Of a DNA stretch of 64,000 nt, positions 3,039 to 7,962 are shown piece by piece (position 1 is the stretch's first letter; every line of letters begins with the position of its first letter). The notes under the pieces were generated by a model that was not told where the DNA came from, made no database searches, and saw only the letters and a program-made list of their open reading frames with translations. Source of the DNA: Candidatus Kaiserbacteria bacterium (GTDB taxonomy: Bacteria > Patescibacteriota > Minisyncoccia > Phycocordibacterales > UBA2100); NCBI GenBank assembly GCA_017134395.1, contig CP070993.1, positions 398,199-462,198 of the forward strand, in the 5' to 3' direction. The translations under genes were made by a program, and so were the position numbers.

Positions 3039-3043
3039 TGCGC

Positions 3044-3906: not shown

Positions 3907-3945
3907 AGTGTGAATAGTATCACTAACGATATATTCAAATATTTT

Positions 3946-4053
3946 ATGTTGGCGCCGAGCTACTCTCGCCTTACGACTACCATCGCCTCAGAAGAGCTTA
4001 ACTTCTGTGTTCGGAATGAGAACAGGTGTACCCTCTTCGATGAAGCACCAACA
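3946..4053 (-). rRNA. rrf: 5S ribosomal RNA
   Basis: The reverse complement reads TGTTGGTGCTTCATCGAAGAGGGTACACCTGTTCTCATTCCGAACACAGAAGTTAAGCTCTTCTGAGGCGATGGTAGTCGTAAGGCGAGAGTAGCTCGGCGCCAACA, which matches the bacterial 5S consensus (CCGAACACGGAAGTTAAGC...GATGGTAGT). Helix I closes the 5' and 3' ends. Confidence 0.85.
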
Positions 4054-4074
4054 TAAAATATTCGAATGTTGTTG

Positions 4075-4313
4075 TACCTATGTTTGAAAATGAGCTCAAT
4101 CTCTCTAGAAAAGGGATTGAGGAGGATGGTGGGAATTGCACCCACAGCCTGCGCTTAGGACCGTTATAGTTACGGCCGTCGATCCTTTACTGCGACAGCA
4201 AGGACGGACACATATGCGGCACATTGGCTCGAAGGACCTTCGTCCTTACGCATCCTCATGAGGAAAAGGAGAGACGTAGGGCCCTCCAGTTCCCTCATTT
4301 TCAAACATAGGTA
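4075..4313 (-). other. Spacer element between 23S and 5S, bounded by perfect 20-bp inverted repeats and carrying an exact 25-nt copy of 23S helix 69 / I-CeuI-type homing site
   Basis: IR arms 4075-4094 and 4294-4313 are perfect reverse complements (tacctatgtttgaaaatgag). The interior holds CGGCCGTAACTATAACGGTCCTAAG (rRNA sense), identical to the 23S copy at 5697-5721, plus perfect sub-palindromes aaggaccttcgtcctt and cctcatgagg. Confidence 0.5.
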
Positions 4314-4315
4314 GT

Positions 4316-4345
4316 ATTACATAGCACTGAAATCGACATGCAGAT
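4316..4345 (-). other. 3' strand of the 23S processing stem (pairs with 7933-7962)
   Basis: 4316-4345 is the reverse complement of 7933-7962 with one mismatch; in the transcript the two form a 30-bp helix with one G-U pair that brackets 23S, the classical RNase III processing stem. Confidence 0.7.
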
Positions 4346-4374
4346 TTGTTAAACAAAGCTGTTAGAGAACTCCA

Positions 4375-7715
<3,341 letters not shown>

Positions 7716-7932
7716 TTCCACTAACTGCTTTGTTTGTGTCTTGTGTCTGTGCCAACACAACGTAAACCACTTTACGTTTGCTGACGTGTTTTGAAACTAC
7801 CAGCAAGCCCGGTGAGGCTGCTGTTAGTGTAGTTTCGATTTATTTTCTACTTAATTAAAAGTAGTAAATGCAATGTATGCCCCGTACGGAAAGACCCTGG
7901 TCGGCTAGACCAAAAATCAAACGGGACATACT

Positions 7933-7962
7933 ATCTGCATGTCGATTTCAATGCTATGTAAT
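7933..7962 (-). other. 5' strand of the 23S processing stem (pairs with 4316-4345)
   Basis: See 4316-4345. It lies about 220 nt upstream of the mature 23S 5' end. Confidence 0.7.

Follow-up and report, generated by a model that had tools for sequence, protein, structure and literature searches.

The spacer between the 23S and 5S rRNA genes of a Candidatus Kaiserbacteria genome holds a 239-nt element (4075-4313), bounded by inverted repeats and containing, in rRNA sense, an exact copy of a 23S segment that includes helix 69. The question raised by this locus is what such an element is, and how a piece of 23S rRNA came to lie within it. The stretch analysed, referred to as the window, consists of 64,000 nucleotides of contig CP070993.1, and all positions without a locus name are those of the window. 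A first-pass annotation, made from the letters of the sequence, had proposed either a small RNA presenting a helix 69 mimic or the relic of an intron or homing-endonuclease transposition.

The element is best explained as a lineage-specific, decaying tRNA-derived module, enclosed in a conserved long stem of the pre-rRNA; its helix 69 block is probably a recent, neutral, templated (ectopic) patch in the least constrained loop of that module. tRNAs in rRNA spacers, dispensable stem-bounded inserts of the pre-rRNA and homing sites in the helix 69 region are all already known. What is new is the combination, a stem-enclosed decaying tRNA cassette in a 23S-5S spacer with a captured verbatim 23S segment.

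The rRNA locus and the outer stem

Rfam models place the 23S rRNA gene at 4375-7708 and the 5S rRNA gene at 3947-4052, both on the minus strand, leaving a spacer of 322 nt (4053-4374) between the two gene calls. A group I intron (RF00028) is found inside the 23S gene (4830-5110, minus strand); this is the sole match to the model, none being present in the spacer. No 16S gene occurs anywhere within the 64-kb window: the rRNA genes are unlinked in this genome, as is common in CPR bacteria (PMC8172020). The gene order MS channel, 23S, 5S, 258-aa gene, RodA is kept in relatives; an exact look-up of the RodA-neighbour protein found no record. Genes near the element encode a sugar transferase, RodA and ribosomal proteins, and, given these neighbours, the idea of a transposon or of a guide RNA of the TnpB/IscB-like type was rejected.

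Processing stems flank both rRNAs, all on the minus strand. In that of 23S, the 3' strand (4316-4345) is 97% complementary, over 30 nt, to its partner at 7933-7962, while the extended 5S stem (3933-3955 / 4045-4067) encloses the 5S gene within a feature spanning 3933-4067. Each of the two abuts the stem formed by the inverted repeats of the element, which sits directly between them. The 23S start called by Rfam is 225 nt downstream of the 5' strand of the 23S stem, which implies a long leader (7709-7962).

The inverted repeat described by the first-pass annotation is indeed perfect over 20 bp, the 5' arm (in RNA sense UACCUAUGUUUGAAAAUGAG, 4294-4313, minus strand) being fully complementary to the 3' arm (4075-4094, minus strand), with 0.02 such repeats expected by chance. 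Pairing extends imperfectly to 4322 on one side and to 4066 on the other, for a total of 29 nt at 86% complementarity (4066-4094 / 4294-4322). Conservation of the stem was evaluated on syntenic loci, gathered via RodA homologues (72-94% identity) and, for a further part, by a metagenome scan for the conserved spacer motif; they are designated by L numbers. With arms chosen by eye, which somewhat favours structure, and in an essentially ungapped alignment, 96% of the cells pair in nine related module-bearing spacers, and changes on both sides are seen in 9 of the 20 pairs. None of 500 shuffles reached the observed values, and pairing fell to 18-53% in a control where the partner was shifted by one to three columns. 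Judged from these comparisons, the inverted repeat is a real RNA stem, conserved in related spacers.

Perfect 20-bp terminal inverted repeats around a 239-bp non-coding segment would also be expected of a MITE. However, the 20-nt arms are unique in the window and the element is present in one copy only within 64 kb, neither a target-site duplication nor a nearby transposase is found, and the structure is a local one, its arms lying at the same locus in relatives with compensatory substitutions as in an RNA stem. A transposable element of this kind is scarcely credible and was rejected.

The covarying stem and its location between the 23S and 5S stems make the excision of a discrete RNA from the pre-rRNA plausible. 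A long conserved double helix flanks the segment, as in processing stems of the RNase III type: it measures 20-29 bp, covaries and directly adjoins the stems of 23S and 5S, so that its assignment to this class is a prediction from structure. The stem would be cut by a double-strand-specific RNase (RNase III type) during the separation of 23S and 5S, and the interior would then be released and degraded. Where the stem encloses intact tRNAs, these would be matured by RNase P and RNase Z; a decayed interior, as in the window, would be a by-product. The arrangement recalls the IVSs of 23S genes and their RNase III stems in its long perfect helix, in the dispensable, hypervariable interior and in a presence that varies among close relatives. 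It differs from them in lying in the spacer rather than in 23S helices 25 or 45, in an interior that appears to be tRNA-derived and in a cleavage that is predicted only.

The interior of the module

The RNA-sense strand of the element folds at -109 kcal/mol, with a z-score of -8.4 against shuffles. All parts of the predicted fold lie on the minus strand and are described here in the direction of the rRNA. After the 5' arm of the outer stem, the minimum-energy structure forms a hairpin (hairpin 1, 4262-4293), which separates the stem from a tRNA-like core. The core opens with the 5' strand of an acceptor-like stem, GAGGAUG (4251-4257), which pairs perfectly with CAUCCUC at 4122-4128. At the position of a D-arm there is an 8-bp hairpin with a GAAG loop (CGUAAGGAC-GAAG-GUCCUUCG, 4230-4250), which accounts for the small palindrome aaggaccttcgtcctt noticed in the first reading of the sequence. 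The position of the anticodon arm is occupied by a central branched domain of 84 nt (4146-4229), closed by AGCC/GGCU and UGUGC/GCGCA. A T-arm-like hairpin follows, GUGGG-UGCAAUU-CCCAC (4129-4145), with a 5-bp stem and a 7-nt loop, and directly after it come the 3' strand of the acceptor-like stem and the sequence C-UCA. A last hairpin (4095-4121) lies between the core and the 3' arm of the outer stem, and in every module-bearing relative a hairpin is found at this place.

A consensus scan marked part of hairpin 1 (4268-4287), with the UUUUCC next to it, as terminator-like on the rRNA strand; if active, it would end transcription ahead of the 5S gene. The run of U is not kept in L025, a homologous spacer described below.

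Like tRNAs, the predicted fold stacks an acceptor stem of 7 bp on a T-arm whose stem has 5 bp and whose loop has 7 nt. It departs from them in the sequence of that loop, UGCAAUU and not UUCRANY, in the 84-nt central domain, in the 8-bp GAAG hairpin at the D position and in the ending C-UCA in place of C-CCA. Against a tRNA origin, no match to the Rfam tRNA model RF00005 is found in 4040-4390, even at E <= 10, nor does ARAGORN with default settings call a tRNA in the core of the window or, like the Rfam model, in that of L025. Calls made by ARAGORN with relaxed thresholds and introns allowed were inconsistent, and were left out as evidence. When the T-arm, the acceptor 3' strand and the CCA of the relatives' tRNAs are compared with the window without gaps, the best match falls exactly at 4118-4145, with identity at 17-19 of 28 positions, a result equalled in 2-75 of 5000 shuffles; the same holds for L025. 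The interior can thus be read as a tRNA-derived module, a point missing from the first-pass annotation, on the basis of its position, of its architecture and of this 28-nt similarity. It would have kept the 7-bp acceptor-like stem, the T-arm-like hairpin and the flanking hairpins, and lost the canonical D-arm, the anticodon loop, the T-loop sequence and the CCA.

Rfam searches of the spacer and of L025, at gathering and at permissive E-values, returned a 24-nt LSU match and noise. Bacterial Y RNA (YrlA) and the tRNA-like domain of tmRNA offer a comparable architecture, with a long terminal stem, an acceptor/T-arm module and another domain replacing the anticodon region. The window differs from both in its non-canonical T-loop; no YrlA or tmRNA match was given by Rfam, and ARAGORN called no tmRNA in it.

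The only clear homologue of the interior is found in L025 (metagenome locus Ga0210057_1010744). Column identity between the two elements is 75%, the fold is the same (z = -7.1 for L025) and the outer stem has the same sequence (GUUUGAAAAUGAG / CUCAUUUUCAAAC). Both share the outer stem, hairpin 1, the acceptor-like stem, the D-position hairpin, a nearly identical T-arm-like hairpin and the 3' hairpin; the hairpin 1 of L025 is at the same place with a different sequence, and its acceptor is followed by C-CCA, where the window has C-UCA. Several helices differ between the two by pair-preserving changes: in the acceptor of L025 (GGGAUG/CAUCCC) the A-U pair 2-71 has become G-C, and its D-position hairpin, CGUUAGGGU-GAAG-GCCCUGCG, keeps the GAAG loop with pair-preserving changes in the stem. 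Such changes speak against a module that is simply decaying, as they suggest that its fold is still under some constraint and may exceed mere debris.

A 42-codon reading frame, which starts in the 5' arm and ends at the TAA inside the 25-nt copy of 23S sequence, was rejected as a gene, since in L025 it stops after 18 codons.

tRNA cassettes in related spacers

In this Kaiserbacteria clade the stem encloses one or two tRNA units. ARAGORN calls a tRNA-Ala(cgc) in L014, a tRNA-Pro in L029 and, in L008, L011 and L023, an aberrant tRNA with an aberrant anticodon loop. Two units in tandem are present in L028, for which ARAGORN calls a tRNA-Pro, as well as in L018 and in L045-L048. The second unit of L045 matches the Rfam tRNA model with 64 bits as Pro (CGG), and the first with 52.5 bits (E = 1.4e-10), although an 82-nt insertion replaces its anticodon loop. 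In the alignment to the tRNA model the acceptor of this first unit has a G3-U70 pair and A73; the YrlA score of L045 is 17.6 bits, versus a gathering score of 69. T-arm-containing folds, which tRNA finders reject or accept only at relaxed thresholds, are seen in L015, L022, L030/L042 and L039. On the evidence of these calls, the stem interior is a tRNA cassette in differing states of integrity.

The first units of L045 (740-883), L028 and L018 share an alanine-type acceptor (G3-U70, A73) and an anticodon loop replaced by about 80-100 nt. Such a length falls short of that of a group I intron, and the tRNA model is the only one in Rfam to match these units.

Short spacers devoid of any module are found in L020, L021, L036 and L038, and the module is hence, by this comparison, dispensable. 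In the survey of other rRNA operons, proposed in the first-pass annotation, some relatives carry a stem-bounded module at this place and some have none, and in no case does it contain the helix 69 copy.

The type of module does not follow relatedness. L008 and L014, whose 23S genes are 97.9% and 97.1% identical to that of the window, are nearer to it than L025 (96.3%), and yet carry the canonical-tRNA type. The cassette may have been exchanged by recombination between conserved flanks; alternatively, the ancestor may have had two units, as L018, L028 and L045 do, and the unit that was lost may differ from one lineage to another.

tRNA genes are known in the spacers of rRNA operons, such as Ile and Ala between 16S and 23S, and, for CPR bacteria, tRNAs or protein genes between 23S and 5S have been mentioned without further description (PMC8172020). 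As in those operons, a tRNA-shaped unit would be co-transcribed between processing stems, and bona fide tRNA matches occur at the same spot in relatives. The window differs in the position of the unit, 23S-5S instead of 16S-23S, and in a covarying stem of its own, of at least 20 bp; the unit itself fails tRNA models and bears a 56-nt insertion with rRNA sequence. In the literature searched, no description of tRNA-like elements in a 23S-5S spacer was found. Within one CPR clade, the cassette enclosed by the conserved stem of the 23S-5S spacer ranges from functional-looking tRNAs, through tRNAs whose anticodon loop bears a large insertion, to tRNA-like folds that have degenerated; one of the latter has acquired, verbatim, part of the 23S segment most prone to introns. 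The description is of use in annotating CPR rRNA operons and in spotting hidden or decaying tRNAs.

A further tRNA-like unit is located outside the spacer in L022 (3991-4067), where ARAGORN calls a tRNA-like gene in a 123-nt insertion inside the 23S gene, with a T-arm matching those of the spacer tRNAs. A unit of this kind, placed in an IVS-type site, could lead to fragmentation of the 23S rRNA. The corresponding 23S position of the window is occupied by a near-perfect hairpin of 26 bp (6435-6488).

The 5S region of the closest relatives (L008 5675-6085, also L009-L013 and L023; L039 3171-3565) looks rearranged or invaded. Unrelated sequence of about 140 nt comes after the initial 20-23 nt of 5S, then a full 5S-like copy, only 83-87% identical to the 5S of the window, and a third, partial 5S copy.

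The copy of 23S helix 69

The 25-mer CGGCCGTAACTATAACGGTCCTAAG, which had drawn attention to the element, occurs exactly twice in the window, both times on the minus strand: in the spacer (4154-4178) and in the 23S gene (5697-5721), where it belongs to the native helix 69-71 segment, uninterrupted in the window and presumed to be the source of the copy. Identity is 25/25 with the 23S of the window and 24/24 with the Rfam bacterial LSU consensus (model positions 1932-1955; local search, 16 bits, E = 0.006), and none of 100 shuffles gave any match, even with three mismatches allowed. We take the 25-mer to correspond to C1905-G1929 of E. coli, as placed from the known pseudouridine positions of helix 69. 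The copied segment comprises helix 69 (1906-1924), as a complete hairpin, and CUAAG, all 25 nt being unsubstituted, and the hairpin forms independently in the predicted minimum-energy structure. The sequences flanking it have no similarity to 23S; a simple 23S duplication had rightly been discounted from the start.

The alignment with L025 shows what distinguishes the window. The only large difference is a single gap of 56 columns in L025, corresponding to window 4154-4209, that is to the 25-mer together with an imperfect hairpin of 31 nt (GUCCGUCCUUGCUGUCGCAGUAAAGGAUCGA, 4179-4209). In L025 this is the position of the loop of a small hairpin (UGCG-UAU-CGCA), at the anticodon position, and the whole central domain has a counterpart of about 25 nt, no larger than an anticodon arm; the central region is close to a normal anticodon arm plus variable loop. 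An insertion in the lineage of the window is the parsimonious polarity, because the central region of L025 is near normal size and relatives have normal tRNAs; with a single homologue of this module type, the direction is set by normal tRNA size only, a point against the explanation preferred here. No source for the 31 nt beside the 25-mer was detected in the window or in any fetched locus.

The anticodon-position hairpin loop would be the least constrained part of the module, and related units carry large insertions there too. The template would have been the 23S gene, about 1.5 kb upstream, or any other 23S, as the segment is universal.

By blastn against all the loci of the relatives, the 25-mer was found in their 23S genes and in no other spacer, and no rRNA-derived sequence was found in other spacer modules. 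When metagenomes were scanned for the spacer motif with the helix 69 core 135-165 nt downstream of it, there were 0 matches. In 185,579 genomes, one for each species, the 24-mer of helix 69 followed by a base other than G was found at seven loci, none of which is a spacer element of this kind; copies running past G1929 would escape this pattern. At five of the seven, small lesions or indels of a 23S gene directly follow the 24-mer; at another (L005), an IS630-like transposase has been inserted there into a 23S gene; the last (L004), from a Myxococcaceae MAG, is an ectopic fragment without relation to the element.

These results bear on the proposal that the copy has a function. According to it, a tRNA-shaped RNA would be cut from the pre-rRNA with a helix 69 hairpin replacing its anticodon arm and, being made in step with the ribosome, would act as a decoy or as an assembly or modification cofactor, titrating or recruiting helix 69 binders, such as a RluD-type pseudouridine synthase, RlmH or subunit-joining partners. 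The hairpin is complete, identical to the 23S copy and independent in the predicted fold, and the RNA that contains it is strongly structured and closed by a covarying stem; moreover, the lack of any substitution in 25 nt and the preserved hairpin, which agree with a recent neutral patch, are also expected under selection for mimicry. On the other hand, the copy is absent from L025, the one homologue that the module has, as well as from every other related spacer, and no such element came up in the metagenome and genome scans, and close relatives live without the module. Since the 56-nt block with the 25-mer is missing from L025, the helix 69 copy looks like a genome-specific insertion and not like a conserved mimic. 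A helix 69 decoy would matter if true, yet finds no support here; the mimic put forward by the first-pass annotation is in our judgement very unlikely, and the copy may be regarded as a curiosity of this genome.

An error in assembly or polishing, placing a 23S k-mer in the spacer, would also produce a copy confined to one genome. The 25-mer is repeated within 1.6 kb on a metagenome-assembled contig, and a second genome does not confirm it. A mis-join, however, would switch context, whereas both flanks are spacer sequence and the contig is collinear with relatives on both sides; the 25-mer is accompanied by 31 nt of unique sequence, and L025, which derives from a different sample, gives independent confirmation of the remainder of the module. 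For these reasons an artefact is highly improbable, and by these comparisons the 25-mer is real, if a one-off insertion without conservation.

The nature of the copied segment suggests one further origin. LAGLIDADG homing sites are known in 23S helices 69-71 (L1917, L1923 / I-CeuI, L1931). The I-CeuI site consists of half-sites around a 4-nt cleavage centre, CTAA. The copy spans the insertion points 1917 and 1923 and includes the CTAA centre and the left half-site, but the right half-site, GGTAGCG in 23S, is replaced in the spacer by CGCAGGC, an unrelated sequence (2/9 positions match); the I-CeuI-type site noted in the first reading is thus incomplete. It also differs from known homing sites in its non-rRNA context and in having no intron or endonuclease gene.

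In some relatives the native segment is interrupted. L011 and L013 carry, after U1923, an intron of 810 nt encoding a LAGLIDADG protein of 177 aa; the protein of L011 matches LAGLIDADG endonucleases of solved structure, I-CeuI among them (E = 1.4e-13). A LAGLIDADG intron of 688 nt follows U1931 in L021, and in L028 an insertion at about 1917 divides helix 69, while another lies a short way downstream. In the loci compared, helices 69-71 form a hot spot for introns in this clade. For CPR 23S genes, the insertion positions listed as rich in LAGLIDADG include 1917 and 1931 (PMC11270868). Anticodon loops of Patescibacteria tRNAs are, in turn, known targets of introns (PMC13011429).

With introns of the clade at 1917, 1923 and 1931, a repair provoked by an endonuclease is therefore conceivable: a break or ectopic homing in the spacer tRNA-like gene would have been repaired from the 23S helix 69 region, so that the exon around the 1917/1923 sites was copied in, and the intron later lost or never copied. 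The copied segment, 1905-1929, equals 1917 +/- 12, being centred on the 1917 insertion point and containing that of 1923 as well; to this are added the introns of the relatives, the CPR hot spots and the targeting of anticodon loops just mentioned. Against this reading, the spacer has no intron-like sequence and Rfam finds nothing in it, none of the introns of the fetched loci matches the 31 nt adjoining the 25-mer, the copied exon is unbroken, which would require the precise removal of a transposed intron, the right half of the I-CeuI-type site is missing, and the 23S gene of the window has no intron at these sites. We regard such an origin as unlikely; were it correct, the copy may be a rare footprint of ectopic repair near homing-endonuclease target sites. 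A templated patch in a decaying tRNA-derived module remains the preferred reading.

Two of the loci found in the genome scan deserve a separate description. In L004 (7380-7445, minus strand), an intergenic exact copy of 23S 1899-1929 is preceded by diverged 23S-like sequence, and there is no rRNA gene within the 8-kb locus; it constitutes a second, unrelated ectopic helix 69 fragment. Both this copy and that of the window stop at G1929, a boundary forced by the search pattern. In L005 (6699-7922), from an Ardenticatenaceae MAG, the 23S gene is broken right after CCTAAG (about 1929-1931) by an IS630-like transposase element, whose family was judged from the translation only.

Other 23S insertions vary among these genomes. 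A 366-nt insertion of the window (4761-5126, near E. coli position 2500), which contains the group I intron detected by Rfam, is common to the window and L014. Most relatives are without it and have instead, at position 3041/3042 of the window 23S (near E. coli 2593), an insertion whose length is about 240-550 nt; L022 has neither, and L015 has another insertion at position 2343/2344 of the window 23S. The intron repertoire thus shows a fast turnover among genomes whose 23S genes are 92-98% identical.
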